From Escherichia coli (GTDB taxonomy: Bacteria; Pseudomonadota; Gammaproteobacteria; Enterobacterales; Enterobacteriaceae), in NCBI RefSeq assembly GCF_029227855.1, contig NZ_CP074356.1: a stretch of DNA of 64,000 bases. One strand, 5' to 3'. The translations under genes were made by a program, and so were the position numbers. The notes beneath the pieces were generated by a model. That model saw only the letters and a list, made by a program, of their open reading frames with translations, made no database searches and was not told the origin of the DNA. Positions 22,363 through 61,890 of the stretch are shown in pieces (position 1 is the first letter of the stretch; every line of letters starts with the position of its first letter).

Positions 22363-23228
22363 CTATATTATTTTCTGTTATTACTCCTACCTATAATAGG
22401 GCAGATGAGTTAAGCTCATTGTTCAAAAGTCTTAATAATCAAGAGGGTATCGAATTCGAATGGGTGATAATTGATGATGGTTCTGAAGATCATACACAAC
22501 AACAAGTTAATGACTTCAAAAAACATAATAAAAACATCACAGATATAAAATATTTTTATCAAGAGAATAAAGGTAAAAATTCTGCTGTAATTAGAGGGAT
22601 TCAGAATGCTTCCGGCGATTATATTGTGGTGATTGATAGCGATGATTATTTATTGGATGATGCTTTAATAAGAGTAAAAAATATATTAGATGAAGAGAGT
22701 GTTAATGGCGATGATAAAATAATTGGCATTTCAGGTGTTAAAGTTAAAAGTGATTTCACACCTGTAAGTTATATTAGCAACTCTTCGGCATTGCGAATGA
22801 GTCATTATGAGTGGTTTTATAAGTTTCAGCGGTTAGGTGATCGGATTGACTTTTATAAAGCCCGAGTGCTTAAAGAGAAAATATTTAATGCATTTCCAAA
22901 GGAAAAGTTTATTACAGAAGACGCATATTGGTTGGACCTCGTTGGGGAAAAAATTTTCATAAATGAACCGTTATTAGTAATAAAATATTTAGAGGGAGGG
23001 CTTAGTTCAAGTTACTCATTACTCCTGCGAAACAGTCCTTTTGGAACATCATATTATTATTATATTCTATTAATTAATGCTGATAATTTTAAAACAAAAC
23101 TTAAAGCATCATTATTGATGATGTACTATATATTTGTTACCATATTAAAAAATAGTAATATAGTAATTGGGTTATTGTCACTCATGTTATTTCCAATCTT
23201 ATGTATAATAAAATTCTTTCGAAGCTAA
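22359..23228 (+). CDS. Glycosyltransferase family 2 (O-antigen)
   Basis: 289 aa; SVITPTYNRADEL and DSDD motifs typical of GT2; GTG start overlapping the wzy stop. Confidence 0.75.
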   Translation: MTILFSVITPTYNRADELSSLFKSLNNQEGIEFEWVIIDDGSEDHTQQQVNDFKKHNKNITDIKYFYQENKGKNSAVIRGIQNASGDYIVVIDSDDYLLDDALIRVKNILDEESVNGDDKIIGISGVKVKSDFTPVSYISNSSALRMSHYEWFYKFQRLGDRIDFYKARVLKEKIFNAFPKEKFITEDAYWLDLVGEKIFINEPLLVIKYLEGGLSSSYSLLLRNSPFGTSYYYYILLINADNFKTKLKASLLMMYYIFVTILKNSNIVIGLLSLMLFPILCIIKFFRS

Positions 23229-24406
23229 GAAACACTATTCTTCCTTGTTTCACTCTAGGAACGTCGACGATTTTTTTCTTTGCGATAGGTTTCTTCTTTG
23301 GTATAAATGAAAAATCTGATTTTATATTATTTACGATTACTTTACTTTCAACCATTGGAACTATTCTTCAAATTTCTTGGTATGGATTGTTACCTCGTTT
23401 GAGTTCGAGTTCAAGCTTAAAATTTTTAGGTTATATTATTTCTAATGGTTTTATCTACTGTTTGATCATAAATACCCTACCATTTGTGATTTTAACTCTG
23501 AACTTTACAAACTTTTTTTTTGCAGGGTGTCTCTACTCTTTATTTTTCCAACTGCATCAGTATCTTAAGAATGTTTTTGTTTATCTTGGGCGGCTTAAAG
23601 CATTTTATATTTTTGATGCCATCGGCTATGCCATATGTGTTATAAGTATTACTGTGTTCCAAAAATATCTATTACATTCAAACCCTCAGGATTTATTTGT
23701 TCTGCTTTCGTTATGTTGGCTTTTAATAGTAATTGGTGAGGTCGTACATCTTAAACTATATATTAATTATGACATATCTGTAAAGCCTGTTTATGTATGT
23801 ATTATTCCAACATGGAAAACAAGGATTGCAAACAGTGGTTTTATTGTGAAAGATCTTTTAACTGCGTATGCGCTTAATATACTTGCGCCGGTAGGCGGTT
23901 TAACTATATATTCATACGCAAGTAAGATTTCAACAGCTGTTTTTCAATTATTCTCTCAATATAAAGTAAATGCTTGGGTGGGCAGCATAAGAAAAAAAAG
24001 GTTAAGTGAAGTAGAATACGGTGATATAAAAAAAGTGTCATTATCTTCTTCAATTGATTTTTGTATTTTTCAGATCGTTGCATGGCTTTGTATCTTACCT
24101 ATTATATTATATAATGGCACAAATATAAATATTGAATGGTATGTATTAAGTATTATTACTGGTGGATTACTATACTTGATACAATCAATGGAACAGCCTT
24201 ATGCTAGATTTATTTATATGTCACGACATTTTACCGATATTGCCATCGCAGATGGAATAAATTTTATTATTTATATGGTTTTCTTTTCATATGGATTGTT
24301 AATGTTAAATGTATATTATCTATTTTTAGGTATTATATTAGCTCAATTATGTTCACTAGTTACTTATTCTTTATTTTGCAAGAGGTTGTTTAGGAATGAT
24401 ACCTAA
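23201..24406 (+). CDS. wzx: Putative O-antigen flippase Wzx (polytopic membrane protein)
   Basis: 401 aa hydrophobic ORF with many predicted TM segments; position within O-antigen cluster; the Wzx/Wzy assignment between the two membrane proteins is inference. Confidence 0.5.
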   Translation: MYNKILSKLRNTILPCFTLGTSTIFFFAIGFFFGINEKSDFILFTITLLSTIGTILQISWYGLLPRLSSSSSLKFLGYIISNGFIYCLIINTLPFVILTLNFTNFFFAGCLYSLFFQLHQYLKNVFVYLGRLKAFYIFDAIGYAICVISITVFQKYLLHSNPQDLFVLLSLCWLLIVIGEVVHLKLYINYDISVKPVYVCIIPTWKTRIANSGFIVKDLLTAYALNILAPVGGLTIYSYASKISTAVFQLFSQYKVNAWVGSIRKKRLSEVEYGDIKKVSLSSSIDFCIFQIVAWLCILPIILYNGTNINIEWYVLSIITGGLLYLIQSMEQPYARFIYMSRHFTDIAIADGINFIIYMVFFSYGLLMLNVYYLFLGIILAQLCSLVTYSLFCKRLFRNDT

Positions 24407-25052
24407 AATAATACATTACTGTTGGTTCGGGGGCGGGGATAAACCTGCTTTAGTTAAAAAATGTATGGGGACATGGGAAAAAGTCTTGCCTGGTTGGGAT
24501 ATTATTGAATGGAACGAAGATAATTCGCCAGTATCAGTTCCTTATGTAAAAAATGCGTTAGAAGATAAACGATATGCATTTGCTGCTGATTATGTAAGAT
24601 TCTATGCGCTAAAAACCATGGGAGGAGTTTATCTTGATACTGATATGGAATTGATCAAAGATATTTCTCCGCTTTTGAATAATAAATTCTTTACAGCGAA
24701 AGAATCAGAGGAGCTTATTAATGCAGCAATAATGGGGAGTGAAAAAGATGGGAGATTTGTCAATTTAGTAATCCAAGAATTACAATTGCGCACAGGACAT
24801 ACTTACGAATCTATACCAAAAATACTTACTGATATATTTAATACAGGAAATGGATTTAAAGATGAAACAACCATTTATGATAAGGAATATTTTTATCCTT
24901 ATAATCCCTTTGATAATAAACGAAATGAAGTTAAACAACTTTTCTATTGTGATATAACTCCTCATACTTATGCCATTCATCACTGGCAACAAAGTTGGCA
25001 CTATACATTTCTTGAACGGGTTATTAACAGAATAAGGATGCTTATAAAGTGA
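24396..25052 (+). CDS. Glycosyltransferase, GT32-like sugar-binding family (DXD motif)
   Basis: 218 aa; IIHYCWFGG N-terminus and YLDTDME motif. Confidence 0.7.
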   Translation: MIPKIIHYCWFGGGDKPALVKKCMGTWEKVLPGWDIIEWNEDNSPVSVPYVKNALEDKRYAFAADYVRFYALKTMGGVYLDTDMELIKDISPLLNNKFFTAKESEELINAAIMGSEKDGRFVNLVIQELQLRTGHTYESIPKILTDIFNTGNGFKDETTIYDKEYFYPYNPFDNKRNEVKQLFYCDITPHTYAIHHWQQSWHYTFLERVINRIRMLIK

Positions 25053-25819
25053 GTGGAAATAAATTAATAAGCATAATTATGGCATCAAATAAAATAGATG
25101 AGTTTCTACCTCTGGCAATAAACTCAATTCTTGAACAAACATATCAAAATATCGAAGTGATTTTTGTTGCTAATGGTGATAAAGCTCACTGTATTAGTTT
25201 GTATATAAAAAATTTTTTTAAAGATGAGCGAATCAAAATTTATGAAACACCAATAGGCCAACTATCACATGCGCTTAACCTCGCTATTTCTAACGCATCG
25301 GGTGATTATATTGCCCGCATGGATGCTGATGACATTAGTTTACCTGAGCGATTAACTAAACAGTTGGAATATTTAAGGTCACATAATTTAGATATGGTAG
25401 GTTCGGATATAATTCACATAGATACAAATGGAGAAGTTATTGGGATTAAACATTATCCCAAAGGGTTAAATAAAATTAACAAACAATTGTATTTTAGGAA
25501 TACTTTTTCGCATAGCACTATACTAATCAAAAAAAAAATACTCATTTCAGCGAGAGGCTACAATGCTGGATTTAATTCAGAGGACTATGATCTCTGGTTA
25601 AGATTAAGACGGAAGAATATCAAATGGGATAATATGGAGGAATGCCTCTTAAAATATCGTATACATAGTGCATCTACACAAAGGAAGAGATTGGGTTACG
25701 CCGAAGTCGCGGGTTATTCTCTACGTGAATTTTTATTACGTTTCTCATTTATTGGTATTTTTTCTGTTTTAATTCATATTGTTAAAGTTTATATTAAATC
25801 ATCTTCTCATGAAGAATGA
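25049..25819 (+). CDS. Glycosyltransferase family 2 (O-antigen)
   Basis: 256 aa; GT2-like N-terminus and DADD motif; GTG start overlapping the upstream stop. Confidence 0.7.
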   Translation: MSGNKLISIIMASNKIDEFLPLAINSILEQTYQNIEVIFVANGDKAHCISLYIKNFFKDERIKIYETPIGQLSHALNLAISNASGDYIARMDADDISLPERLTKQLEYLRSHNLDMVGSDIIHIDTNGEVIGIKHYPKGLNKINKQLYFRNTFSHSTILIKKKILISARGYNAGFNSEDYDLWLRLRRKNIKWDNMEECLLKYRIHSASTQRKRLGYAEVAGYSLREFLLRFSFIGIFSVLIHIVKVYIKSSSHEE

Positions 25820-26010
25820 TTTATATTTTAGGATAATTAACTATTTAAATTAGAATCATTTGAGCAAACTTAGGTAACTCTATATAATACACAGCATTGC
25901 AAATGAGTAACATATTGGAATAGCCATTCAATGGTAATATTACAAATTGCTTTAATAATAATGGATCATTTAGCTATGGTGCAATATTTTCTTCTTGCGG
26001 AATTTTACCC

Positions 26011-27129
26011 ATGAAAATACTTCTAATAGGAAACCTCTCTGATACTATTGTATTATTCAGAGAGAAGTTAATAAGAGAGTTGATTAAAAAAAATATCACG
26101 GTTTATACATTAACGATGGATTCTAATCAAGAAAACTTCAACATCATTGCCAGCTACGGGGCCAAACCTGATTCATACTCTTTTTCTCGTTCAGGTACAA
26201 ATCCTTTTTCTGATATTTGGGATACATACAAATTAAATAAAAAAATAAAAAAAATAAAACCTGACGTTGTTCTTTCTTTTTTTCCAAAACCTGTTATTTA
26301 TGGTTCTTTAGCTGCTAAAATAGCAGGGGTGAAAAAAATATTTAGTCTCTTGGAAGGACTTGGTTTTTGCTATACGAATAATTCTAGTCCAATTAGTCTC
26401 AAAAGGAAGATATTAAAATGTATACAAACAATGCTATACAGAATTAGCTTGCCATTATGTAATAAAGTTTTTTTCTTAAACAAGGATGATTTTAATGATC
26501 TCATTATTGATAATAAAATAACCATAAAGAATTATGAAATAATTGGTGGAATTGGTGTTAATTTAGAAGAGTACAGTTATAAGCAACCAAAGATTGATAA
26601 AATACATTTTGGGATGGTTTCGCGATTACTAGTCGAGAAAGGTATTCGCGAATTTGTTTTGGCCGCGAGCCAGGTGAAAAAAAAATTTCCTGAGGTCGAA
26701 TTTAGTATTGCTGGCGCAATTGATGATAATCCTGGTGGTATAACCGAAGATGAGATAAAAAAATGGGAATCAGAGGGGGTTGTCAAATTTTTAGGTCAAG
26801 TTTCTAATGTTAAAAGTTATTTATCTAATATCTCTGTTTTCGTTTTGCCATCTTACCGAGAAGGCGTACCAAGAAGTACTCAAGAAGCGATGGCTATTGG
26901 GCTTCCAATAATTACAACTAATGTTCCTGGTTGTCGTGATACAATTATCAATATGGTAAATGGAATCATGATCCCACCATTTGATATTCAGTCTCTAGCG
27001 GACGCAATGGTATTTTTTATACAAAACCCTCAGAGTATAACAATAATGGGTAGAGAAAGTAGAATAATTGCAGAGAAAAAGTTTAATGAAATAGAAGCCG
27101 CGAATAAATTACTTAAATTAATAATCTAA
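26011..27129 (+). CDS. Glycosyltransferase family 4 (GT-B fold, O-antigen)
   Basis: 372 aa; C-terminal EGVPRSTQEAMAIGLPII resembles the GT4 EX7E region. Confidence 0.75.
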   Translation: MKILLIGNLSDTIVLFREKLIRELIKKNITVYTLTMDSNQENFNIIASYGAKPDSYSFSRSGTNPFSDIWDTYKLNKKIKKIKPDVVLSFFPKPVIYGSLAAKIAGVKKIFSLLEGLGFCYTNNSSPISLKRKILKCIQTMLYRISLPLCNKVFFLNKDDFNDLIIDNKITIKNYEIIGGIGVNLEEYSYKQPKIDKIHFGMVSRLLVEKGIREFVLAASQVKKKFPEVEFSIAGAIDDNPGGITEDEIKKWESEGVVKFLGQVSNVKSYLSNISVFVLPSYREGVPRSTQEAMAIGLPIITTNVPGCRDTIINMVNGIMIPPFDIQSLADAMVFFIQNPQSITIMGRESRIIAEKKFNEIEAANKLLKLII

Positions 27130-27159
27130 TATATAGATTAACATCTACCGGAGTGTTTT

Positions 27160-28179
27160 ATGGCTATTCTTGTTACTGGCGGAGTTGGTTATATCGCTTC
27201 GCACACTATTATAACTTTACTAGAAAAAGGTGAAGAAGTTATAATACTTGATAATTTATCAAATTCATTCTACGAATCTTTGCATAAAGTTAAAAAAATT
27301 ACCGGGTATGATAGTCGATTTTATAGAGGTGATATACTTGACAAAGAGCTCTTACGCAAAATATTCAAAGAAAACACTATTTCTGACGTAATTCATTTTG
27401 CAGGCTATAAATCTGTAAAAGAATCCATTTCTCACCCATTGAAATACTATCAAAATAACGTTTCTGGTACATTGTCATTAATAGATGCGATGGGGGAGGC
27501 TTGTGTAAAAAGTTTGATTTTTAGCTCATCAGCTACAGTATATGGTGAACCAGAAAGAATACCTTTAGATGAAAATTGCAGAATTGGAGGTACAACGAAT
27601 CCATACGGCACGTCCAAGTTATTCGTAGAAAAATTCCTTATTGATTATTCACATGCATTCCCTGATTTTAGAACTACCATCTTAAGATATTTCAACCCTG
27701 TCGGTGCTCATCCATCTGGTGAAATAGGGGAAGATCCCAATGGTATACCTAACAACTTAATGCCATATATATGTCAAGTTGCTATAGGGAAGCAACAACA
27801 CCTCACTATCTTTGGTAGCGATTATCCAACAAAAGATGGTACAGGTGTTCGTGATTATATCCATGTCATGGATCTTGCTGAAGGGCATGTTGCAGCGTTA
27901 GAACATCGAAATGAAGGAGCAAATTGCAAGATCTATAATCTCGGGACGGGCACAGGATACTCAGTACTGGAACTTGTTGATGCATTTCAAAGAGTTACTG
28001 CACGTAAAGTTCCATATGTATTCAGTAAACGACGACCTGGTGATATTGCTGAGTGTTGGTCTGATCCTTCTAAGGCTTATAGGGAACTTGGATGGAAAGC
28101 GAAGCGTGGGTTGGAAGAAATGGTTCGAGATGCCTGGAATTGGCAACAAAAGAATCCGAACGGTTATATAAAAGCATGA
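27160..28179 (+). CDS. gne: UDP-hexose 4-epimerase of the GalE/Gne family (likely UDP-GlcNAc/UDP-Glc 4-epimerase)
   Basis: 339 aa; Rossmann GGVGYIASH, catalytic YGTSK motif; located immediately upstream of gnd. Confidence 0.85.
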   Translation: MAILVTGGVGYIASHTIITLLEKGEEVIILDNLSNSFYESLHKVKKITGYDSRFYRGDILDKELLRKIFKENTISDVIHFAGYKSVKESISHPLKYYQNNVSGTLSLIDAMGEACVKSLIFSSSATVYGEPERIPLDENCRIGGTTNPYGTSKLFVEKFLIDYSHAFPDFRTTILRYFNPVGAHPSGEIGEDPNGIPNNLMPYICQVAIGKQQHLTIFGSDYPTKDGTGVRDYIHVMDLAEGHVAALEHRNEGANCKIYNLGTGTGYSVLELVDAFQRVTARKVPYVFSKRRPGDIAECWSDPSKAYRELGWKAKRGLEEMVRDAWNWQQKNPNGYIKA

Positions 28180-28297
28180 ATGCTCAATGGTATTTTTGTC
28201 AATCTTAAAAATTATCGATTTTATGTATCCTGAGTTAACATAGCATCTACATTGACCTGAGTTATGTTTCGCAGTATCACCCTGACAGGAGTAAACA

Positions 28298-29704
28298 ATG
28301 TCAAAGCAACAGATCGGCGTAGTCGGTATGGCAGTGATGGGGCGCAACCTTGCGCTCAACATCGAAAGCCGTGGTTATACCGTCTCTATTTTCAACCGTT
28401 CCCGTGAGAAGACGGAAGAAGTGATTGCCGAAAATCCAGGCAAGAAACTGGTTCCTTACTATACGGTGAAAGAGTTTGTTGAATCTCTGGAAACGCCTCG
28501 TCGCATCCTGTTAATGGTGAAAGCAGGTGCAGGCACGGATGCTGCTATTGATTCCCTCAAGCCGTACCTCGATAAAGGTGACATCATCATTGATGGTGGT
28601 AACACCTTCTTCCAGGACACCATTCGTCGTAACCGTGAGCTTTCTTCAGAAGGCTTTAACTTCATCGGTACCGGTGTCTCCGGTGGTGAAGAAGGTGCGC
28701 TGAAAGGTCCTTCCATTATGCCTGGTGGGCAGAAAGAAGCCTATGAACTGGTAGCGCCGATCCTGACCAAAATCGCCGCAGTAGCTGAAGACGGAGAGCC
28801 ATGCGTTACCTATATTGGTGCCGATGGTGCAGGTCACTATGTGAAGATGGTTCACAACGGTATTGAATACGGTGATATGCAACTGATTGCTGAAGCCTAT
28901 TCTCTCCTGAAAGGCGGCCTGAATCTCTCTAACGAAGAACTGGCACAGACCTTTACCGAGTGGAATAACGGTGAACTGAGTAGCTATCTGATCGACATCA
29001 CCAAAGATATCTTCACCAAAAAAGATGAAGACGGTAACTACCTGGTTGATGTGATCCTGGATGAAGCAGCAAACAAAGGTACGGGCAAATGGACCAGCCA
29101 GAGCGCGCTGGATCTCGGCGAACCACTGTCTCTGATTACCGAGTCTGTGTTTGCACGTTATATCTCTTCTCTGAAAGATCAGCGCGTTGCCGCATCTAAA
29201 GTTCTTTCTGGTCCGCAAGCGCAGCCGGCAGGCGACAAAGCTGAGTTCATTGAAAAAGTTCGCCGTGCGCTGTATCTGGGCAAAATCGTTTCTTACGCTC
29301 AGGGCTTTTCTCAGCTACGCGCCGCGTCTGAAGAGTACAATTGGGATCTGAACTACGGCGAAATCGCGAAGATTTTCCGTGCTGGTTGCATCATCCGTGC
29401 GCAGTTCCTGCAGAAAATCACCGATGCATATTCCGAAAACCCGCAGATCGCTAACCTGCTGCTGGCTCCGTACTTCAAGCAAATTGCCGATGACTACCAG
29501 CAGGCGCTGCGTGATGTCGTTGCTTATGCGGTACAGAACGGTATCCCGGTTCCGACCTTCGCCGCTGCGGTTGCCTATTATGACAGCTACCGTGCTGCTG
29601 TTCTGCCTGCGAATCTGATCCAGGCTCAGCGTGACTATTTTGGTGCGCATACTTATAAGCGCATTGATAAAGAAGGTGTGTTCCATACTGAATGGCTGGA
29701 TTAA
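28298..29704 (+). CDS. gnd: 6-phosphogluconate dehydrogenase, decarboxylating
   Basis: 468 aa; [28 protein letters not shown]-terminus; matches recalled Gnd. Confidence 0.97.
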
Positions 29705-39186: not shown

Positions 39187-40086
39187 TCACTCCATCATCT
39201 TCTCAATCGGCAGCACCAGGATTGAACTGGCACCCAGCGCTTTCAGTTTTTCCATCGTTTCCCAGAACAGGGTTTCGCTACTGACCATGTGCATCGCTAC
39301 GCGCTGTTGATCACCTGCCAGCGGCAGAATAGTTGGGCGTTCGGCACCTGGCAGCAGGGCGATGACTTCATCCAGACGTTCAGTCGGTGCGTGCATCATG
39401 ATGTATTTTGATTCGCGCGCCTGGATCACGCCCTGAATACGGGTCAGCAGCTTGTCGATCAGTTGCTGTTTAGATTCTTCCATTTCGCCATCGCGCTGGA
39501 TCAGGCAGGCTTTCGAGCGGTAGATAACTTCGACTTCGCGCAGGCCGTTAGCTTCCAGCGTGGCACCGGTGGAAACCAGATCGCAAATCGCATCCGCCAG
39601 TCCGGCGCGCGGGGCGACTTCAACAGAACCGTTCAGTAAGCAGGATTTAAAAGAGATGCCTTTCTGGTCGAGATAACGCTTGAGCAGGTGAGGATAAGAG
39701 GTGGCGATACGTTTACCGTTTAAGGAGAGCGGACCGTCCCAGGCTTCATCAACCGGCGTTGCCAGCGAAAGGCGGCAGCCGCCGAAATCCAGTCGACGCA
39801 GGGTAAAGTAGCGCGGATCTTCACCCTGGGCTCGGCGGTTAAGCAGCTCTTCTTCCAGCACGTTTTCGCCGATAATCCCAAGGTCTACCACGCCGTCCAT
39901 TACCAGACCGGGAATGTCGTCGTCACGCACGCGCAGAATATCAATCGGCATGTTTTCTGCCATCGCGATCAGGCGCTGGGTGTGAAGATTGATTTTAATG
40001 CCACAGCGCGCCAGCAATTCGCGTGAGTCATCACTTAAACGGCCGGATTTCTGCATAGCTATGCGTAAACGAGTGTTGTCTGTCAT
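39187..40086 (-). CDS. hisG: ATP phosphoribosyltransferase
   Basis: 299 aa from [21 protein letters not shown]; the ORF track start at 40125 is an upstream extension. Confidence 0.95.
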
Positions 40087-40134
40087 TTTCTTATTCCTCT
40101 TTAAACCTGTCTGAACCGTTATCAACAGCGCAAT

Positions 40135-40170
40135 AAAAAAGCCCCCGGAAGGTGATCTTCCGGGGGCTTT
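40135..40170 (-). terminator. his operon attenuator (leader terminator)
   Basis: On the minus-strand transcript: agcccccggaag-aucacc-uuccgggggcu stem followed by a U run; lies between hisL and hisG. Confidence 0.85.
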
Positions 40171-40231
40171 CTCATGCGTTCATGCACCACTGGAAGATCT
40201 GAATGTCTTCCAGCACACATCGCCTGAAAGA

Positions 40232-40282
40232 CTAGTCAGGATGATGGTGATGATGGTGGTGTTTAAATTGAACGCGTGTCAT
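40232..40282 (-). CDS. hisL: his operon leader peptide
   Basis: Reverse complement encodes MTRVQFKHHHHHHHPD-stop, with seven consecutive His codons. Confidence 0.95.
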   Translation of the reverse strand: MTRVQFKHHHHHHHPD

Positions 40283-40529
40283 AAAAGTCTCTGTGAATGT
40301 TTATTCAACTGATGTCTTTTAACCTAAACCACTTTCACGTTAGAAAGCAAGGGCTTTTTTATATATTTTATGGCGATGGATTTGTTTAATGAATGAGCGG
40401 GGAAAGGAGGGGGCTAAGAGGACTGTCCTCTAACCTGACGGCACCAAAAATAGCGAAGCCTGGATTTTCGTCTCACTGACAATATCTTGATCTACAAACT
40501 AATTAATAAATAGTTAATTAACGCCCATC

Positions 40530-40551
40530 ATTGTACAATGAGCTGTACATA
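40530..40551 (+). promoter_or_regulatory. yefM-yoeB operator/promoter with paired TGTACA palindromes
   Basis: ttgtacaatgagctgtacat about 15 bp upstream of the yefM start; TGTACA cores at 40532..40537 and 40544..40549. Confidence 0.7.
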
Positions 40552-40564
40552 AGAGGAGATTGAT

Positions 40565-40816
40565 ATGCGTACAATTAGCTACAGCGAAGCGCGTCAGAAT
40601 TTGTCGGCAACAATGATGAAAGCCGTTGAAGATCATGCCCCGATCCTTATTACTCGTCAGAATGGAGAGGCTTGTGTTCTGATGTCACTCGAAGAATACA
40701 ACTCGCTGGAAGAGACGGCTTATCTACTGCGCTCCCCCGCTAACGCCCGGAGATTGATGGACTCAATCGATAGCCTGAAATCAGGCAAAGGAACGGAAAA
40801 GGACATTATTGAGTGA
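40565..40816 (+). CDS. yefM: Antitoxin YefM (type II TA system)
   Basis: 83 aa; [55 protein letters not shown]. Confidence 0.95.
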
Positions 40817-41067
40817 AACTAATCTGGTCTGAGGAGTCATGGGATGATTATCTGTACTGGCAGGAAACAGATAAGCGAATTGTTAAAAAGATCATTGAAC
40901 TTATCAAAGATACCCGCAGAACACCATTTGAAGGTAAGGGGAAGCCAGAACCCCTGAAGCATAATTTGTCAGGCTTCTGGTCCCGACGCATTACAGAGGA
41001 GCACCGTCTGGTATACGCGGTTACCGACGATTCACTGCTCATTGCAGCATGTCGTTATCATTATTGA
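40813..41067 (+). CDS. yoeB: Toxin YoeB (ribosome-dependent mRNA interferase)
   Basis: 84 aa; start overlaps the yefM stop; C-terminal HRLVYAV...YHY. Confidence 0.95.
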
Positions 41068-41149
41068 ACAGATTCATTCATAGAATGAATTGTCAGTTTT
41101 GATACGCTAGCGTAGCCTTATAGATCTAAGGTGTATCAGGAGATAACGG

Positions 41150-41974
41150 ATGAAAAAGGTCGCAATTGTCGGGTTAGGGTGGTTAGGCATGCCGCTGGCG
41201 ATGTCACTTTCAGCGCGAGGCTGGCAAGTCACCGGGAGTAAAACCACGCAAGATGGTGTCGAAGCGGCCCGAATGAGTGGCATTGATAGTTATCTGCTTC
41301 GCATGGAGCCTGAGTTAGTTTGCGATTCTGACGATCTGGATGCCCTGATGGATACCGATGCGCTGGTCATTACGCTTCCGGCACGTCGTAGCGGCCCCGG
41401 CGATGAGTTCTATTTACAAGCGGTACAAGAGTTAGTGGATAGCGCGCTGGCCCATCGTATTCCCCGCATTATTTTCACCAGCTCAACATCTGTCTATGGC
41501 GATGCGCAAGGCACGGTGAAAGAAACTACCCCGCGTAATCCGGTGACCAACAGTGGACGAGTATTAGAAGAGCTCGAAGACTGGCTGCACAATTTACCCG
41601 GTACTTCGGTCGATATTCTGCGTCTTGCGGGGCTGGTCGGACCGGGACGTCATCCCGGACGCTTCTTTGCCGGAAAAACCGCCCCTGATGGTGAACATGG
41701 TGTTAATTTAGTCCATTTAGAAGATGTTATTGGCGCTATCACTCTGTTGTTACAGGCACCTAAAGGCGGACACATCTATAATATATGTGCGCCAGCTCAC
41801 CCTGCGCGTAATGTTTTCTATCCGCAGATGGCCCGTTTACTGGGGCTGGAACCTCCGCAGTTCAGAAATAGTCTGGACAGCGGCAAAGGTAAGATTATTG
41901 ATGGCAGTCGGATTTGTAATGAACTGGGATTTGAATACCAGTATCCCGATCCGCTGGTAATGCCGCTGGAGTAA
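41150..41974 (+). CDS. yeeZ: NAD(P)-binding epimerase/dehydratase-family protein YeeZ
   Basis: 274 aa; Rossmann N-terminus VAIVGLGWLG; conserved position. Confidence 0.9.
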   Translation: MKKVAIVGLGWLGMPLAMSLSARGWQVTGSKTTQDGVEAARMSGIDSYLLRMEPELVCDSDDLDALMDTDALVITLPARRSGPGDEFYLQAVQELVDSALAHRIPRIIFTSSTSVYGDAQGTVKETTPRNPVTNSGRVLEELEDWLHNLPGTSVDILRLAGLVGPGRHPGRFFAGKTAPDGEHGVNLVHLEDVIGAITLLLQAPKGGHIYNICAPAHPARNVFYPQMARLLGLEPPQFRNSLDSGKGKIIDGSRICNELGFEYQYPDPLVMPLE

Positions 41975-51346: not shown

Positions 51347-51790
51347 TTAGCGACAGCCTTCTTCTGTATGCAGCAAGGCAAAAAGTTCTGCAACTCCATT
51401 GTTATTAACCGCACTGGTTACTAACACATTGTGCGCTCCAGCTTCCCGTAACCAACTTTTCACCAAAGATATTTGTTCCATGCTGGCTAAATCTGCTTTG
51501 GTGACTACTCCAATGACCGGGCGATTCATTGACGAGGTAAAGCCTGGCGAAAAAGGGGACCACGGTGCGTCCGCATTAAGCACCAGGGCGATAATGTCCG
51601 CTTCGCAGGCGCTGACCAACAGAGCACTGTAGAGGCTGCGGTTTTCGAGGTATTCGCCTGGTGTATCAATGGTGGTCGGGGACCAGACGATTGCCTGCGT
51701 TTTCTGATAATGAATATTTTCGCCACGCAGACATTGCGTGAGTGACGTTTTTCCGCACTGGCTGGGGCCGATGAGCATCATACGTTGCAT
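51347..51790 (-). CDS. pduV: PduV, EutP/PduV-family small GTPase associated with the Pdu microcompartment
   Basis: 147 aa; P-loop [10 protein letters not shown]; matches recalled Salmonella PduV. Confidence 0.88.
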
Positions 51791-51794
51791 AACG

Positions 51795-52145
51795 TCAGGT
51801 CCGCGTAATGGGGCAGGCGGTAAAGCGCATCATTTCACCCAGCGTACGGGTAACCTGGCTAAGTGCATATTCAATGGCAGAAACATCACCAGTCAGCACT
51901 ACGGCACCGGTAAAACGATCAAGAAAACCGATCTCTACAGCGCCTGATTTTGTGGCGATATCACATGCGATGATAGATGCTTCGCTGGGGGTAATTGTCA
52001 GAATGCCAATAGCAGAAACGGTGTCTGGTAAACCCAATTTCTTAAACAGATCCTTCCCTGGATTGGCGATGACATGTGCCAGCGTGACCTGCTTACCAGG
52101 GACATATTCCTGAATCATCCGTTCAGTTGTGTGCTGAGTTGTCAT
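51795..52145 (-). CDS. pduU: PduU, BMC shell protein (circularly permuted BMC domain)
   Basis: 116 aa from [32 protein letters not shown]; near-identical to recalled Salmonella PduU. Confidence 0.9.
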
Positions 52146-52699
52146 TATCCCTCCACCATCTGACGCCACATGGCTTCATGTGGACGGGCAATCACCGACC
52201 GATAGACCAACAAACCTTTTTCTCCCGCACGCTCGCTGGCGACAGAGACCGCGTTATTAACATCTGAAATATCGCCAGCAACCACCATGTAGCATTTACC
52301 GCCAATGCCAAAAGCCATATGCACGCGAACAAGAATGACATTCGCAGCTTTGACAGCACAATCGGCAGCGTCAATGCAGGCGGCGACACTCCAGGTTTCG
52401 ACTACGCCGACAGCCCGGTGCTGTTCAACTTGGTTCAGTCCGCTGGTTGCAGAAAGGAGGCTGGGATGAATATTCGGCAGGACAAGACTGTCGACCAGCA
52501 TTTCACCAGCAAGGGAAGCACCGCTGTTGATGGCCTGTTGCACCGCGCCCACATCGCCACCGAGCATCAGCAGAAATTTTCCGGGGCATAGCGTTTTGCT
52601 GACCAGTAACTCAACGTTGGCGCTTTTCAGCATGGCGTCGCCGGTTTCCATCCCTTTCGCGATACTGCTAAGTTCTAAAATACCTACCGCTTTCGACAT
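52145..52699 (-). CDS. pduT: PduT, tandem-BMC-domain shell protein
   Basis: 184 aa with two BMC domains; [29 protein letters not shown]. Confidence 0.9.
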
Positions 52700-52701
52700 C
52701 G

Positions 52702-54045
52702 TTAACCTCTCACAAGCGTAATCGCGTTTTCTGTCACATCGCTGACCATGCCATCAATACTGGCATGAATGGGGGCACCTAATGTGCCGTGTGGAATTTG
52801 ACCTACACATTGCCCATGAACGACGCGATCGCCTTTTTGTACACACGCAATTGCGCTGGCACCGATGTGCTGGCGTAACAATAACGTCACTTTTTCGGTC
52901 TGAGGCACCTGTTCAGACAATGGCGCATCCTGATACCACGGGGTTAAGCCAAGTCTGGTTACCAGCCGTTTTACGGGAATCAGTCGATAATTTGCCATGG
53001 GATCTGCAGGATTTAAGGTACCTTCGTAACGGAGATTTTGTGCGCGTAATTCTTGCTTAAGCAGGCGGTTTATGCGCATTGGTGAAATTCCTACCGGACA
53101 GGCGACGCTGGCGCAGACGTTGCACTCCGAACAGGTGAGCGCCGTCAGTAACAGTTGTGGCGTAGCGAGCTGTTGGTAGTTAACCGCACGTACTAATAAA
53201 TGGGGTGCCAGTTCGTGACCGATTAAATGACGTGGGCAGAGATCGGTACACAAGCGGCATTGCTCACAAACAGTTTTCGCGACGGCAAGTACGCTGCGGT
53301 CATTCTGCATTCGACGTTGGATCAGTGAATGAGAGTTGGGTAAAACCAGCAAGCCGCCAGTGGTTTTGCTGACTGGTGTGTCGAGCGATGTGATCAAACT
53401 TCCCATCATCGGCCCGCCATTGATAAAACCAGGAGCATCCACTGTTGCGCCGCCCGCCAGCGCCAGGACTTCACGTAAAGACATGCCGATGGGGACGGTT
53501 ACCGTTATTGGTTTCGCCACTGCACCATTAACGGTGAGTGTGCGGCGCGTCACTGGATACTGTTGCTCGACGGCTCTGGCAATATTAAGTACGGTTTGAA
53601 CATTATTGACCACCACACCGACGTTAACGGGTAATGCAGCGGGTGGAACACGGCGACCAGTTGCCATCCAGATGGTCAGCACTTCGTCTCCTGCGGGGTA
53701 AACGTCGGGCAAAATATGCAGGCGGATATCCGGTGGTAACAGTGGTGTGAGTGCGTTTATTGCCCGTTGATATTTCTCTTTCAGCGCGATGATTCCGCTA
53801 CTGGCCCCGGTGGCTTTCATCGCATAGTGAACACCGCGAAGCAGGCGGCTGGCTTGCTGCGCCATTAACTGTTGATCCACTTTCAACATTGGTTCGCATT
53901 CCGCCGCATTCACCAGGAACGTGTCAACACGCGCTTGTAGCTTAATATGGGTTGGGAAACCTGCGCCGCCAGCACCCACGACACCAGCTGCCTGTACTCG
54001 CTCGCGGATGGTCTGGTCGTCGCAGGAGGTTAACTCGACGTTCAT
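52702..54045 (-). CDS. pduS: PduS, cobalamin reductase (RnfC/NuoF-like flavoprotein with two 4Fe-4S motifs)
   Basis: 447 aa; GAGGAGFP nucleotide-binding motif; Cys clusters [12 protein letters not shown] and [13 protein letters not shown]. Confidence 0.9.
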
Positions 54046-55154
54046 AACAACTCCTCGAGCAGTTCTGCAATAGCGGTGGCATCAGCCGTACGCGGGTTGG
54101 TACGCAACGTTGCATCCGCCAGTGCCGCCTGAACCATATCTGGTATGCGTATTGACCATTCTGCTTTTTTTTCTTTCAGCACATTGGTAAGAGTCGGTAG
54201 CTTACAGGTTGTTTTAAGCTGTTCAATATGTTGAATAAGTATATTCAGGCTGGCGGTGTCATTGGCGTTGTCCGGGCATAAATGGCACGTTTTCGCCAGC
54301 CGGGCGTAGCGTTTGGCAGCGCGCGGATCGCCAGCATTAAAGCGGATAACCGCCGTGAGCAGGAGCGCATTCGCCAGGCCGTGTGGCAGATGAAACTGTC
54401 CGCCGAGTTGATGAGCAATTGCATGGTTTAATCCCAGTCCAGCTTGGCTAAAGGCCATTCCTGCAAGTGTCGATGCATTATGCATTTTGCCACGGGTGGC
54501 GAGACAATCGCCTTTCTTCACTGCAGTGGGCAGGTATTGAAAAACAATTTGCACGGCTTTTTCGACCAGTGCATCCGTGAAGTCGCTGGCGCGGGGAGAA
54601 ACATAAGCTTCAAGCGCATGGGTTAAAACATCCATCCCGGTATTGGCCGTTATCGCCGGTGGCACGCTGACGATCAGAGATGGATCAAGGATCGCGATAT
54701 CCGGATAAAGTGCATTATCGAAAAGGGGATATTTAATCCCTTTCTCAGGATCGCTGATGACACAAGCACTGGTCACTTCGGAACCGGTACCGCTGGTGGT
54801 AGGAATGGCTACGCAGGTTTCAATTTCAATGCCACACTGGCGACCGAACCAGACAATCGCTTTTGCGGCGTCCAGGGCAGAACCGCCGCCAAAACCGATA
54901 ACCACATCCGGGCGTAAAGTCTGCATTTGCGCAATGCCTTTCACCACGGTCTGGATAGTTGGGTCGGGCGTTATTTCGCTAAAAATACTAAGACGATTAC
55001 TGTCGGGCAGCGCCTGATGCAACGTGTTAATGAGTGGTGAGCGTGCCAGAAAGACGTCGCAAATAATCCAGATGTGTTTATGAGAGAAACGGCTAAGTAC
55101 CTTGAGACTTCCCGGTCCGCTGTATAAACGCGTCTGCAGTGAAAAAGTATTCAT
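54042..55154 (-). CDS. pduQ: PduQ, iron-containing 1-propanol dehydrogenase
   Basis: 370 aa; Fe-ADH family glycine-rich region GFGGGSALDAAKA. Confidence 0.9.
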   Translation of the reverse strand: MNTFSLQTRLYSGPGSLKVLSRFSHKHIWIICDVFLARSPLINTLHQALPDSNRLSIFSEITPDPTIQTVVKGIAQMQTLRPDVVIGFGGGSALDAAKAIVWFGRQCGIEIETCVAIPTTSGTGSEVTSACVISDPEKGIKYPLFDNALYPDIAILDPSLIVSVPPAITANTGMDVLTHALEAYVSPRASDFTDALVEKAVQIVFQYLPTAVKKGDCLATRGKMHNASTLAGMAFSQAGLGLNHAIAHQLGGQFHLPHGLANALLLTAVIRFNAGDPRAAKRYARLAKTCHLCPDNANDTASLNILIQHIEQLKTTCKLPTLTNVLKEKKAEWSIRIPDMVQAALADATLRTNPRTADATAIAELLEELL

Positions 55155-55164
55155 TTCCGTTTCT

Positions 55165-56550
55165 CTAGCGAATTGAAAAGCCGCTGGTTAACACGCAGCG
55201 TCGTGAGCGGGCAAAAGTCCGTGCTGACGTTGTCCCTTCTCCGGTCGGTGTTGCAATGGTAAAGGTCGTAAAGCCTTCGCCGCCGACGCCAATACCCGCC
55301 CAGGAGGGGCCGTTTTTGACAAAGATTGAGGTTTGCATAACGCGTGCGGTAAGGTTGAGCCGTGAGACGTTCTGCGAGTGCATAATTGCCGTGTGGTGCA
55401 AGCCGTCTTCCACTTTCAGCGCCAGGGTGAGAGCGCTATCAAAATCGTTGACCTTCACAATGGGCAGCATTGGCATCAGTTGTTCACAAGTAACCCAACT
55501 ATCATTGGCGTCGACAACAGCAATCAGTAGGCGCGGCGCTTTTGCGGGCAAAGGGAGGCCTGCCGCTTCCAGCAAGGCTGATGGGCTTTTCCCAACCAGT
55601 TTTTTGTTGGCGCTACCGTCTGGCAGGCAAATTGCACGCAATTTCTCCGTTTGCTCATAGTTAAGAAGAAGCGCGCCAAAACTTTGCATCTGCTGAATTA
55701 AATAATCTGCCACTGATGCCACGACAATCAGGCTTTTTTCAGCAATACACGGCAGGTTGTAATCAAATGAAGCGCCGTTGATGATGTCCTCGGCGGCTTT
55801 CACAATATCCGCCGTTTCATCGACGATGCACGGAGGGTTACCCGCTCCGGCACCAATCACTTTCTTGCCACTTTTCATTCCCATGGCGACGATCCCCGGA
55901 CCGCCGGTAATCGCCAGAACGCTGATTTTAGGGTGCGCCATCATCTGTTCGGTTGCAGCAAAGGTCGGTTCAGATACGGTAACGATCAGGTTATGAATGC
56001 CACTACAACGAAACGCGATGTCTTCGATTGTGGTAATCAGTTTTAACGAAACGTATTTGGCTCCCGGGTGTGGACTGAAGTAGACGCTATTACCTGCTGC
56101 CAGCATGCTGATGCTGTTGTTAATGATGGTTTCCGTGGGGTTGGTGCTTGGCGTGACCGAGCCAATAACCCCAAACGGGGAGTATTCAAACAAAACCATG
56201 CCACCATCACCGGTTAGTGCAGTGGTGGTTAAATCTTCAATTCCTGGCGTGTTATCAAGTGCCGCTTTGTTTTTTAGGTACTTATCTTCTTTATTTCCCA
56301 TCCCCGTTTCTTTGGCGCTTTCTTCTGCCAGTTCGGTCAGGCGGGGTATTAATTCTTCGCGAATGGCGCTGATAATGGCGCTACGGGTTTTAAGCGGGCA
56401 CTGTTGAAAGCGTAAAAAGGCCTGGTGTGCTGCGCAGACCGCTTCATCAACAGTCTGGAAAATAGCGTTTCTTTGCATTCGTTGCGTAGCGGGGGCAAGC
56501 TGCTCACGCAGAATATTGCGGATCAGTGTTTCTAATTCAGAGTTATTCAT
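55165..56550 (-). CDS. pduP: PduP, CoA-acylating propionaldehyde dehydrogenase
   Basis: 461 aa aldehyde dehydrogenase with N-terminal amphipathic extension MNNSELETLIRNILREQL. Confidence 0.92.
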   Translation of the reverse strand: MNNSELETLIRNILREQLAPATQRMQRNAIFQTVDEAVCAAHQAFLRFQQCPLKTRSAIISAIREELIPRLTELAEESAKETGMGNKEDKYLKNKAALDNTPGIEDLTTTALTGDGGMVLFEYSPFGVIGSVTPSTNPTETIINNSISMLAAGNSVYFSPHPGAKYVSLKLITTIEDIAFRCSGIHNLIVTVSEPTFAATEQMMAHPKISVLAITGGPGIVAMGMKSGKKVIGAGAGNPPCIVDETADIVKAAEDIINGASFDYNLPCIAEKSLIVVASVADYLIQQMQSFGALLLNYEQTEKLRAICLPDGSANKKLVGKSPSALLEAAGLPLPAKAPRLLIAVVDANDSWVTCEQLMPMLPIVKVNDFDSALTLALKVEDGLHHTAIMHSQNVSRLNLTARVMQTSIFVKNGPSWAGIGVGGEGFTTFTIATPTGEGTTSARTFARSRRCVLTSGFSIR

Positions 56551-57554
56551 TGGTTTACTCCCACGTTAATTGCCGCCATTGCGCTTTGGGCAATATCCAT
56601 GTCTTGTTCAACGCTACCACCGCTGATGCCAAGCCCCCCGAGCAATATTCCGTCACGCCAGAGGGGGAAGCCGCCACCAAAGGTGACGACTTTGCCTTGC
56701 ATATGGCTTTCGAGCCCGTAAAGCGGCGCGCCGGGTTGCACGGTATCAGCAAGTTTGTGGGTTGCCGTTTTCATCGCCACGGCAGTCCAGGCTTTTTTCG
56801 GTGCCAGTTCACTGCTGACCAACAGGGCATCAGGCATCCGCCAGGTAACACTTTCTGTTCCGTTGGCATCAACAATGCTGATGACAACGGGAATATGCAG
56901 TTCATCCGCGCGCATTGCCGCACTACGAATGAGCTGGTGAAGATCCTGAAAAGTGAGCGGCATTGTGCGTTCCTTCAATGCTGGTGTGTGGTTGGCTTTG
57001 TGATAACGTTTTGTGATTTCCTGAATTATCAGGTTTTGATGAGCGACGTTGTCTTCCACGCGGGCGAGGGCATACAGGCAATCGGAAAGTCGGTTGATAT
57101 AGTGCAGCAAAACATTCCGGACGGTGATTTCCGTTGTCAGTTCAACCAGACGTCTTTCAGCACGTCGAGCCACCGTGCGGGCGAAATGCATACGGCTTGC
57201 AGCTTCACATCGCCCAGGCAGAATGAAGCTGTGAACTGGGGGGACGGCGTTCATTGCGCTATCGATCGCGTTTTCCAGCGCGGCAATTTCTTCCGTACCG
57301 ATGTAACGCAGCTGCGCTGACGGCTGTTCGCTTTCACTGGCAAGTTCGGCGCTAAACCAAAATATCTGTTGTTGAATGGCTTCCAGTAAGATGCGATGGC
57401 TTTCGATGGCGGTGGCGCAATAACACAGACTGAGTGTCGCGTTCAGTTCATCCAGCGTGCCATAGGTTTCGACACGTAGATGAGTTTTGCTGACGCGCTG
57501 TCCGGTAAATAAAGACGTACTTCCTGAATCACCTGTTCGGGTATAAATTGCCAT
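56547..57554 (-). CDS. pduO: PduO, ATP:cob(I)alamin adenosyltransferase with C-terminal DUF336 domain
   Basis: 335 aa; MAIYTRTGDSGSTSLFTGQRVSK N-terminus typical of PduO-type ATR. Confidence 0.92.
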   Translation of the reverse strand: MAIYTRTGDSGSTSLFTGQRVSKTHLRVETYGTLDELNATLSLCYCATAIESHRILLEAIQQQIFWFSAELASESEQPSAQLRYIGTEEIAALENAIDSAMNAVPPVHSFILPGRCEAASRMHFARTVARRAERRLVELTTEITVRNVLLHYINRLSDCLYALARVEDNVAHQNLIIQEITKRYHKANHTPALKERTMPLTFQDLHQLIRSAAMRADELHIPVVISIVDANGTESVTWRMPDALLVSSELAPKKAWTAVAMKTATHKLADTVQPGAPLYGLESHMQGKVVTFGGGFPLWRDGILLGGLGISGGSVEQDMDIAQSAMAAINVGVNQ

Positions 57555-57565
57555 CTTTCAGCTCC

Positions 57566-57841
57566 TTAGCGCGAAAGCGTATCGACAATGCCGACCACTG
57601 CCAGGTCGATGGCCTCGTTAGGGCCGGAAAACACATGTCTGGCGCTGGAACCACTGCTGAGGAGTACCAACTCACCAACGCCTGCGCCGACTGAATCAAC
57701 GGCAACTTCGTCGCCGGTTAATGGCGTGAGAGGCAGTTCGCCGTCAGCACTGACCCGGCGAACCAGCAGCAGTTTTTTCCCGATCAGAGATGGTGATTTT
57801 TGCGTGGATACTACCGCGCCAGTGACTCGAGCCAGATGCAT
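57566..57841 (-). CDS. pduN: PduN, BMC vertex (pentamer) protein of the EutN/CcmL family
   Basis: 91 aa; [17 protein letters not shown]. Confidence 0.9.
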
Positions 57842-57844
57842 AGG

Positions 57845-58336
57845 TTACTCCTGCCTAATTAACTGAATATTTCGGGTAATTGCCGCTTCACGAGCCAGTG
57901 CGGTCACACAACATTTCCGCTGTAACACCAGTATTCCCGAGCTTAACTGTGCGATATCGGCATAACTTAAAAGTCGATCACGATGAAGGTAGATCGGTTG
58001 CCCTTGTTCGTCGCACCAGCTTAGCGGTAGACGGGCGAGAGTCTTCAATTCAATGGCGTTCAGGAAATGACGCTGCAACGACAATTGAATGTGCATTCCC
58101 CAGGCTAACGCTTCGTGTATCTGGATTGCTGCTCGATCTGACGTTTCGTTCTCCGCAAGTTGTCGCAGCAGCGGCAGATCGACATATCGGATTTGTAATG
58201 ACGCATACTGATGAACGCTCTCTTGAACGCTGGCGTCTCGCAGTTGAAAAACAGTCAGCACGAGTGCTTTTCTCGCACGTTGTTTAAGGCGAAAAACCAC
58301 CTCGTCAACAATACGTTGCATCAGCATGTTATTCAT
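57845..58336 (-). CDS. pduM: PduM, microcompartment structural protein
   Basis: 163 aa; position between pduL and pduN; length matches recalled Salmonella PduM. Confidence 0.8.
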   Translation of the reverse strand: MNNMLMQRIVDEVVFRLKQRARKALVLTVFQLRDASVQESVHQYASLQIRYVDLPLLRQLAENETSDRAAIQIHEALAWGMHIQLSLQRHFLNAIELKTLARLPLSWCDEQGQPIYLHRDRLLSYADIAQLSSGILVLQRKCCVTALAREAAITRNIQLIRQE

Positions 58337-58965
58337 GGCACTGACACCAGTGTGGCAAAAACGTCAGGGCTATCAGCGCCTGCGGCGTTGGCCTCATCGG
58401 TATCAATATGCATTTCAAGACGCATATCCGGAGAGACGCGAACAGCGACGTTTTCGAATATCAGTCGTCGCTCACCACCTTCAATGGCAACCGCCACTTT
58501 ATCGCCATGCGTAACGCCATAAATCAGGGCATCCAGCGGAGACATATGAATATGCCGTTGCGCGACAATGACGCCAGATGTGATCTCCAGTTCCGCAAAT
58601 GGGCTTATCAAACGAATCCCCGGAGTGCCGCTGAGATCGCCTGACATGCGTAGCGGGGCGGTGATCCCTAACGTTCTGGCGTCCGTCCGGGAAATTTCCA
58701 CCTGGCTTGCATTGCGTAGCGGCCCCAACAAGCGAACGTTGTGCAATTTGCCTTTTGGTCCCTCCAGCGTAACAACCTGTTCAGCAGCGAATTGGCCAGG
58801 TTGCATTAACGGCTTTTTCTCGCTAATCGGTTGTTCAGGAAAAAGACGCAAATAATCCGCTGTTGAAAGATGAATATGGCGACTGGAAACGCCCAGTGGG
58901 ATAGGGCGCTCGCGCATCTCATCCAGAATCTGGCTCACTGTTTCCTGCAGGGTTTGTTTATCCAC
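58333..58965 (-). CDS. pduL: PduL, phosphate propanoyltransferase
   Basis: 210 aa; N-terminal MDKQTLQETVSQILDEM amphipathic peptide followed by PduL/EutD-type domain. Confidence 0.9.
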   Translation of the reverse strand: MDKQTLQETVSQILDEMRERPIPLGVSSRHIHLSTADYLRLFPEQPISEKKPLMQPGQFAAEQVVTLEGPKGKLHNVRLLGPLRNASQVEISRTDARTLGITAPLRMSGDLSGTPGIRLISPFAELEITSGVIVAQRHIHMSPLDALIYGVTHGDKVAVAIEGGERRLIFENVAVRVSPDMRLEMHIDTDEANAAGADSPDVFATLVSVP

Positions 58966-58967
58966 TG

Positions 58968-59390
58968 CTACTCCCCTCGCTTATTGGCGTACAGGCAAAG
59001 TGAGCGGGGCTCACCTTTTTGCCGCTGACATGCCGGGTCAAGACACAAATTACAACTGATAATCTCTGAGGTGACGGTTGTTGCTGGTGTTTTGCTTGTT
59101 TCAACCGTCACGGTCAATGCTTCAATTGTGTGGGGCAGAATGCCGTCTCCCGGGCGGGCAATCACTTTGTGTGCGACAAGGCCATTTCGCTGTCCGGCGA
59201 AACTGGCTCCCGTCGCGATCGCCGCATTAACCGAGGCGACGTCACCGGTGATTTTGATGAGCGTCCAGCCTGAGCCATTGGTCTTCTCAAGGCCAACCAG
59301 CGTGATGGACGCGGCTTTTGCCATAGCGTCTGCGCAACTGATGGCGAGAGCCAGACCACTGACTTCAAGTAATCCCAGTGATTGCTTCAC
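58968..59390 (-). CDS. pduK: PduK, BMC shell protein with Cys-rich C-terminal extension
   Basis: 140 aa; N-terminal BMC domain MKQSLGLLEVSGLALAISCADAMAKAA; C-terminal CNLCLDPAC...C. Confidence 0.88.
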   Translation of the reverse strand: MKQSLGLLEVSGLALAISCADAMAKAASITLVGLEKTNGSGWTLIKITGDVASVNAAIATGASFAGQRNGLVAHKVIARPGDGILPHTIEALTVTVETSKTPATTVTSEIISCNLCLDPACQRQKGEPRSLCLYANKRGE

Positions 59391-59413
59391 GCTGTGCTCC
59401 TTAGCGAATGGGG

Positions 59414-59689
59414 TTATGCTGATTTAGGTAAAATAGCCTCAACATCACTGTGTGGGCGCGGGATGACATGGCAGGATTTCACTTCGCCAACGGCGCTTGC
59501 GGCGGCGCTTCCTGCATCAACGGCGGCTTTTACTGCGCCAACATCGCCACGGACCATCACCGTAATCAGACCCGAACCAATCTTTTCATAGCCAACCAGC
59601 TGCACGTTGGCGGATTTAACCATGGCATCTGCAGCTTCAATTGCGCCAACTAACCCTTTTGTTTCAACCAGTCCTAGTGCGTTGTTCAT
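59414..59689 (-). CDS. pduJ: PduJ, major BMC hexamer shell protein
   Basis: 91 aa; [40 protein letters not shown]. Confidence 0.9.
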
Positions 59690-59708
59690 ACTGCATTTCT
59701 CCTGTGGA

Positions 59709-60059
59709 TTATGAGTGGAGTTCCCGGAAGGGAATCCCTTTTACCAGGCGGGCAGCGTTAGAGCCAATGCTGCGCCGGGCATGGTTATCTTGTTGATACA
59801 TCAGCGTAAACAGTGGCGCTGATGCCGGTAAGTTTTTGTAATGCACAATCAGTTTTTCCTGATCGCAGGCAATGCCAACCAACAGGGGAGATTGACTAGC
59901 AGCCAGCCAGGCGCTATCGATAACTTCACCTGACGGAATGTGTTGAATGCGAAAGGGAATACCTTCCTCTTCAATGCCAAGAAGCACCTCATCCCATATA
60001 GTGATGCAGTTACCGATCTCCATGACGACGATGGCTGGTGCACGCTCTTTACTTTCCAT
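59709..60059 (-). CDS. pduH: PduH, diol dehydratase reactivase small subunit
   Basis: 116 aa; start overlaps the pduG stop; position after pduG. Confidence 0.85.
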
Positions 60060-61881: not shown

Positions 61882-61890
61882 AGTTCGTCC

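Follow-up and report, generated by a model that had tools for sequence, protein, structure and literature searches.

Two short, overlapping genes lie beside the leader of the histidine operon in the stretch of Escherichia coli DNA analyzed here (64 kb in length; hereafter, the window), and two copies of the palindromic hexamer TGTACA precede them. The locus raises the question of whether this pair is the resident chromosomal yefM-yoeB toxin-antitoxin operon, with both genes intact and the palindromes serving as its own operator, or whether the toxin is attenuated, the palindromes are unrelated to the genes, or the pair is a recently acquired mobile copy. We consider in turn the two proteins, the promoter region, the chromosomal position of the module, and the single amino acid by which its toxin differs from that of E. 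coli K-12.

The overlapping gene pair

The pair consists of two small, adjacent, co-oriented genes, with the antitoxin gene first and a 4-nt overlap (GTGA, 40813-40816), and both reading frames are intact, which is the organization of a type II toxin-antitoxin operon. The genes and the ribosome-binding site in front of the first one are the following.

40554-40558, plus strand: Shine-Dalgarno sequence AGGAG of yefM, 6 nt before the ATG, read from the sequence
40565-40816, plus strand: yefM, antitoxin and autorepressor; ATG start, 252 nt, 83 amino acids
40813-41067, plus strand: yoeB, ribosome-dependent mRNA endonuclease toxin; GTG start, 255 nt, 84 amino acids

YefM is identical at 83/83 positions to chain A of 2A6Q, the crystal structure of the YefM-YoeB complex from E. 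coli, and matches both the Phd/YefM antitoxin family (PF02604; 6e-28, 96.8 bits against a cut-off of 29.8, residues 1-73 of the 74-position model) and the YefM equivalog model of NCBIfam (NF008499; 186.6 bits against a cut-off of 121, covering 1-83 of 83). A match to the Phd family model, that of the antitoxins of Phd-Doc systems, was obtained as well. YoeB is identical to chain E of 2A6Q at 83 of 84 positions, the sole difference being N28I, and the matching sequence is also present in the ribosome complexes 4V8X, 6OXA, 6OTR, and 6OXI. Its matches to the YoeB toxin family (PF06769; 3e-42, 142.9 bits, cut-off 27, covering 1-80 of 80) and to the Txe/YoeB equivalog (TIGR02116; 129.8 bits, cut-off 51.8) stand against weak matches to the RelE/StbE, YafQ, and ParE models, with RelE, YafQ, and ParE near or below the curated cut-offs. 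RelE-family toxins (RelE, YafQ, and HigB) have the cleavage of mRNA in the ribosomal A site in common with YoeB, but they are monomers, whereas YoeB acts as a dimer (PMC6821326).

The RefSeq annotation is in agreement with these assignments. In strain JNEC-KY178, which was a 100% match in two other stretches of the window that were searched, yefM and yoeB are annotated at positions converting to 40565-40816 and 40813-41067, respectively, with YefM (WP_001259255.1) at exactly the equivalent of the window coordinates; the RefSeq identifier of YoeB is WP_000767820.1. The pair is likewise annotated between hisL and yeeZ in other E. coli genomes of RefSeq, WP4-S18-ESBL-07 included. The Shine-Dalgarno sequence of yefM has its counterpart in K-12, where the ribosome-binding site is 6 bp from the ATG (PMC1802561), and a weak AAGGA motif lies 9 nt 5' of the yoeB GTG. 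The first-pass annotation had read the locus as an overlapping yefM-yoeB pair in which both frames are intact, and both statements were borne out: family models, identity to the solved structures, and RefSeq annotation concur on the pair, and when the E. coli YefM and YoeB proteins were aligned to the translations, the matches ran over the full length of the solved proteins and were free of frameshifts and internal stops.

The yefM-yoeB system of E. coli K-12 (2A6Q, 2A6R, 2A6S; 4V8X, 6OXA, 6OTR, 6OXI) occupies the same hisL-yeeZ locus, with the same gene order and the same 4-nt overlap. Between the window and K-12, there are 16 single-nucleotide differences in 871 bp, of which one, YoeB N28I, changes an amino acid. 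The two genes together account for seven substitutions, six of them synonymous (one, synonymous, in yefM; five synonymous and one nonsynonymous in yoeB). Judged from these sequences, the operon is complete and almost certainly functional. Growth inhibition by the toxin, neutralization by the antitoxin, and lability of the antitoxin to Lon would extend to this strain by virtue of the near-identity of its proteins to those of K-12 and 2A6Q, for which they are documented in the literature (PMC7167474).

The promoter and the paired TGTACA motifs

Upstream of yefM, one TGTACA hexamer occupies 40532-40537 and the other 40544-40549; a gap of 6 bp separates them, their centres are 12 bp apart, and the second one ends 15 bp 5' of the yefM ATG. 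The exact arrangement TGTACA-N6-TGTACA occurs once in the 64-kb window and in 0/100 dinucleotide-preserving shuffles; when one mismatch is allowed, the expectation for the paired motif is 0.14. The single hexamer has only seven copies in the window, two of which are the ones at the yefM operator. The features of the region, read against the published K-12 promoter, are as follows.

40511-40516, plus strand: -35 hexamer TAGTTA (pyy), transferred from published positions, with the yefM ATG (+21) as the reference point
40528-40541, unstranded: L (long) palindrome TCATTGTACAATGA, the primary YefM site; a perfect palindrome of 14 bp with the core TGTACA at 40532-40537, identical to the L repeat footprinted in K-12
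40534-40539, plus strand: -10 hexamer TACAAT, inside the L palindrome
40544-40549, unstranded: S (short) repeat with the core TGTACA, the secondary site, which surrounds the transcription start and is needed for full repression
40545, plus strand: transcription start (+1, the G of the S core), transferred by homology from primer-extension mapping in K-12

In K-12, Kedzierska et al. footprinted YefM and YefM-YoeB on the promoter (PMC1802561) and defined an operator made up of the L repeat, 5'-TCATTGTACAATGA-3', together with an S repeat that has the same TGTACA core, the two centres being 12 bp apart (PMC1802561). The yefM ATG of K-12 is at +21, with another potential ATG at -7 to -5 (PMC1802561); in the window, a second ATG at 40538-40540 falls on the same -7 to -5 positions. 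The published pyy elements are a -35 TaGttA, a 17-bp linker, and a -10 TACAAT (PMC7730913), and the operator covers the -10 box together with the transcription start (PMC1802561, PMC7730913). The L palindrome, S core, -35, -10, and spacing of the window are all those of K-12, and the sequence of the -35 region is identical. The promoter and leader differ from K-12 at four positions (40525, 40542, 40550, and 40564), all of them outside the L palindrome and both cores, with 40542 being a spacer base and 40550 the base that follows S. The layout is thus that of an autoregulated operator, with paired TGTACA palindromes whose centres are 12 bp apart and which overlap the promoter at less than 80 bp from the yefM start.

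The first-pass annotation had noted two TGTACA palindromes 12 bp apart over the promoter, which proved correct, the distance being that between centres, with L on the -10 hexamer and S on +1. The left end that it gave to the module, 40530, was close, but it clips 2 nt of the L palindrome and leaves out the -35 hexamer at 40511-40516. The generic sigma-70 scan of 40200-41200 did not report the yefM-yoeB promoter, because its -35 hexamer is weak, with only 3/6 matching positions. The sole promoter-like site returned by that scan, on the minus strand inside yoeB (40907-40879), was discarded as a chance hit, 1.8 such sites being expected.

Conservation of the operator was assessed in chromosomal and plasmid relatives. 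L, S, -35, and -10 are unchanged in another three chromosomal alleles, which are 96.4-97.4% identical across the query of 861 bases. The segment TTGTACAA of L is invariant in three chromosomal alleles and in four plasmid homologs (~80-85% identity), in which the flanks diverge, and GTTAAT around the -35 is likewise invariant in the plasmid homologs. In the latter, the S core is either changed at one position (TGAACA or AGTACA) or missing through deletion; an invariant L core combined with a variable S core agrees with the published ranking of L as the primary and S as the secondary site. The yefM-yoeB copies on large IncF plasmids of Salmonella and Citrobacter (e.g., NZ_CP030176.1 and NZ_CP053574.1) are about 85% identical to the window at the DNA level from the promoter through yoeB and share its gene sizes (252 and 255 nt), gene overlap, and L core, but they differ from it in the mismatched or deleted S core and in context, being located next to tra genes or genes for type III secretion chaperones. 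On a plasmid of Salmonella Give, a 13-bp gap removes the S core, and yoeB is absent from the PLSDB gene table of that plasmid, a table that is itself incomplete.

These comparisons bear on whether the paired hexamers could have arisen by chance, or could serve an unrelated regulator, with the gene pair being regulated in some other way. AT-rich promoter regions commonly contain palindromic hexamers, and in the plasmid homologs the S core is less than strictly conserved, being altered by one mismatch or lost. Against this, the exact paired pattern did not arise in any of the 100 shuffles, the L core persists across diverged homologs, and the K-12 L palindrome and S core were footprinted by YefM and YefM-YoeB, with mutations of the S repeat impairing repression (PMC1802561); moreover, the YefM encoded in the window is identical to the K-12 protein. 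We therefore regard a chance or unrelated site as extremely unlikely. By sequence identity and position, the two TGTACA motifs constitute the L/S operator that has been published for the yefM-yoeB promoter. K-12 shares the YefM, L palindrome, and S core of the window, and the specific binding of YefM and YefM-YoeB and the repression published for it would be expected here.

A similar operator is known from Axe-Txe of the Enterococcus faecium plasmid pRUM, a system of homologous protein families in which the TGTACA core of the L and S repeats, their 12-bp spacing, and the -10 hexamer TACAAT are all the same (PMC7730913). The two promoters differ in how the repeats are placed: in pat, the promoter of Axe-Txe, L is in the spacer between -35 and -10 and S partly overlaps the -10, whereas in the window L is on the -10 and S on +1 (PMC7730913). 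In addition, the pat -35 hexamer, TTGCTT, is stronger than TAGTTA of the window, and pat has an extra upstream promoter (PMC7730913).

Chromosomal position and the 652-bp variable segment

According to RefSeq and the open reading frames of the window, hisG, the His leader, and hisL are encoded on the opposite strand and are followed by yefM, yoeB, yeeZ, and yeeY on the yefM strand. The coordinates of the adjacent his elements and of the variable segment described below are the following.

40133-40256, minus strand: His leader (Rfam, 131.6 bits)
40232-40282, minus strand: hisL (RefSeq annotation)
40421-41072, plus strand: variable segment of 652 bp that includes the promoter, operator, and both genes, from the alignment with O157:H7 H2495

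The start codons of hisL and yefM are 282 bp apart and, with both the His leader and hisL being encoded on the minus strand, the module is divergent from the his operon. The first-pass annotation had placed the module immediately upstream of the his leader; the sense of this stands, and only the wording needs correcting, since the two are on opposite strands. In the permissive Rfam scan of 39900-41300, the His leader was the only hit, with nothing above chance within the module, and no terminator was found in the scan of 40200-41200. A hairpin at 41073-41091, ATTCATTC-ATA-GAATGAAT, which is AT-rich, begins 6 nt past the yoeB stop, and precedes a short run of Ts, was examined as a terminator candidate and is not convincing (-9.6 kcal/mol, z = -1.87; 13/200 shuffles fold as well). 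Because this hairpin belongs to the flank common to O157:H7, which lacks the module, it is not counted as part of it.

Of 5426 complete E. coli genomes, 5416 have a match to the region 40290-41150, and 4211 of these cover at least 80% of the query; the region is 100% identical to WP4-S18-ESBL-07 and 98.1% identical to K-12. The alignment with O157:H7 H2495 delimits the variable part: the flanks are identical in both genomes up to 40420 and from 41073, so that the right end of the cassette is 5 bp past the yoeB stop, and O157:H7 H2495 has an unrelated 210-bp segment in its place. This alternative segment contains GCCGGATGCGGCGTGAATGCCTTATCTGG, which we take to be REP-like. At a coverage of at least 80%, the module query is found in 4211 genomes and the alternative segment in 1197, the sum being 5408 of the 5426 complete E. 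coli genomes. Target-site duplications and terminal or inverted repeats bounding the 652-bp cassette were looked for and none was found. The left junction of the cassette lies within a 15-bp palindrome, AGAGGACTGTCCTCT (40416-40430), which has no counterpart at the right junction and is kept in 5/5 aligned module-bearing alleles.

The existence of a discrete 652-bp presence/absence segment, along with related copies on conjugative IncF plasmids of Salmonella and Citrobacter, might suggest that the window carries a recently acquired mobile copy, from a plasmid or island, rather than the resident chromosomal module. However, K-12 and the other genomes examined have the same hisL-yeeZ position, flanks, and junctions, the identity to chromosomal alleles is 96-100% versus about 80-85% to the plasmid copies, and the module together with its flanks is found in a median of one and a maximum of two places per genome. 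Recent acquisition is, in our assessment, very unlikely, and we regard the pair as the resident module of the his-yeeZ site.

Elsewhere, the window contains two further gene clusters of note. The O-antigen cluster at approximately 21000-28400 is of the O23 type (O23 family wzx and wzy) in the annotation of 100% identical strains, and this stretch is covered at 80% or more in only 18 of the 5426 complete genomes. A propanediol-utilization (pdu) cluster follows tmaR (yeeX) at approximately 51500-64000 and is covered at 80% or more in 637 of the 5426. At the position of the pdu cluster, WP4-S18-ESBL-07 has an island with cbtA-cbeA and yeeS/T/W genes, presumably CP4-44-like.

Working of the operon and natural variants of YoeB

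Taken together, the locus is best explained as yefM-yoeB, the type II toxin-antitoxin operon of the E. coli chromosome, a reading in which we have very high confidence. It is a textbook system, found where it normally resides in the chromosome and free of structural anomalies. In the account that follows, the identity and place of the genes, proteins, and operator are as observed in the window, and binding, repression, RNase activity, and Lon dependence come from published work on K-12. The weak sigma-70 promoter (-35 TAGTTA, -10 TACAAT, +1 at 40545) would produce a bicistronic mRNA, from which YefM would be translated by means of a good Shine-Dalgarno sequence and an ATG, and YoeB by coupling from the GTG overlapping the yefM stop; the GTGA overlap and the GTG start suggest that the antitoxin would in this way be kept in excess. 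A YefM dimer would bind one YoeB and keep it inactive, as in the structure 2A6Q. YefM alone and, more avidly, the YefM-YoeB complex would bind first the L palindrome on the -10 and then the S repeat on the start site, and occupancy of the operator would exclude RNA polymerase and repress the operon, in line with the published findings that YefM is the repressor, that YoeB enhances repression, and that RNA polymerase is excluded upon binding to L and then S (PMC1802561, PMC7730913). Upon depletion of YefM by Lon-dependent proteolysis, which has been seen with Lon overproduction and at 42 °C (PMC7167474), the free YoeB dimer would enter the ribosomal A site and cleave the mRNA codon there, as described for YoeB (PMC6821326), with arrest of translation. 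The physiological trigger and the benefit of yefM-yoeB are disputed in the literature (PMC7167474).

The toxin step of this scheme depends on residues that are retained in the window. Glu46, Arg59, Arg65, His83, and Tyr84 are the residues of YoeB that contact or cleave mRNA on the ribosome (PMC6821326), and all five are present in the translation; among 150 family representatives, they are conserved in 142 (E46), 147 (R59), 143 (R65), 111 (H83), and 107 (Y84). The one substitution, N28I, is encoded by ATT at 40894-40896. I28 is a minority allele in E. coli, the exact 63-nt stretch with this codon being present in 87 of the 3782 genomes that match the stretch.

Given this substitution, the operon might be intact in sequence and nonetheless encode an attenuated toxin, with N28I weakening the dimer and the thermal stability of YoeB, so that YefM would serve mainly as an autorepressor in a decaying toxin-antitoxin pair. 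Asn28 is part of a hydrogen-bond network at the dimer interface of YoeB (PMC6821326), and engineered monomeric YoeB has a lower thermal stability (PMC6821326); furthermore, position 28 is Asn in 5/5 solved homologs and in 111 of the 150 representatives, I28 is rare, and the existence of natural E. coli alleles changed at catalytic positions (e.g., R65L, in strain Esc8; see below) indicates that decay of the toxin occurs at this locus. On the other hand, the catalytic and mRNA-contacting residues are all intact, Ile, Leu, or Val occupies position 28 in 15 of the 150 representatives, the dimer interface is described as largely hydrophobic, and the engineered monomer keeps its ribosome-dependent RNase activity (PMC6821326). 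The ratio of synonymous to nonsynonymous changes relative to K-12, 6:1, is also unlike decay. We consider attenuation unlikely, and it is similarly doubtful that N28I has an appreciable effect on stability; the N28I YoeB is probably functional. That N28I is an inactive toxin was likewise rated unlikely, considering that 10% of the representatives have I, L, or V at this position and that the catalytic residues are intact.

A different variant is found in E. coli strain Esc8 (NZ_OZ369299.1), in which the YoeB allele WP_000767819.1 carries R65L plus T19A. Arg65 contacts the scissile phosphate (PMC6821326), which suggests that the Esc8 allele is a naturally inactivated toxin at the same locus. 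It is also conceivable, if improbable, that the replacement of a polar interface residue by hydrophobic I28 changes the stability of the dimer and hence the range of temperatures over which free YoeB acts; with R65L and the 652-bp polymorphism added, the his-yeeZ site would then offer, within one species, a natural series running from the full module through altered and inactivated forms to its absence.

With its crystal structures, ribosome complexes, and footprinted operator, yefM-yoeB is among the best characterized type II toxin-antitoxin systems, and the value of the present finding is that of a positive control, in which a reading of raw sequence placed the genes and the operator to within 2 nt. 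The accompanying observations, namely, the 652-bp cassette and its 210-bp alternative, the N28I allele, and the R65L allele, may be of modest use for population studies of the gain, loss, and decay of toxin-antitoxin modules in E. coli.
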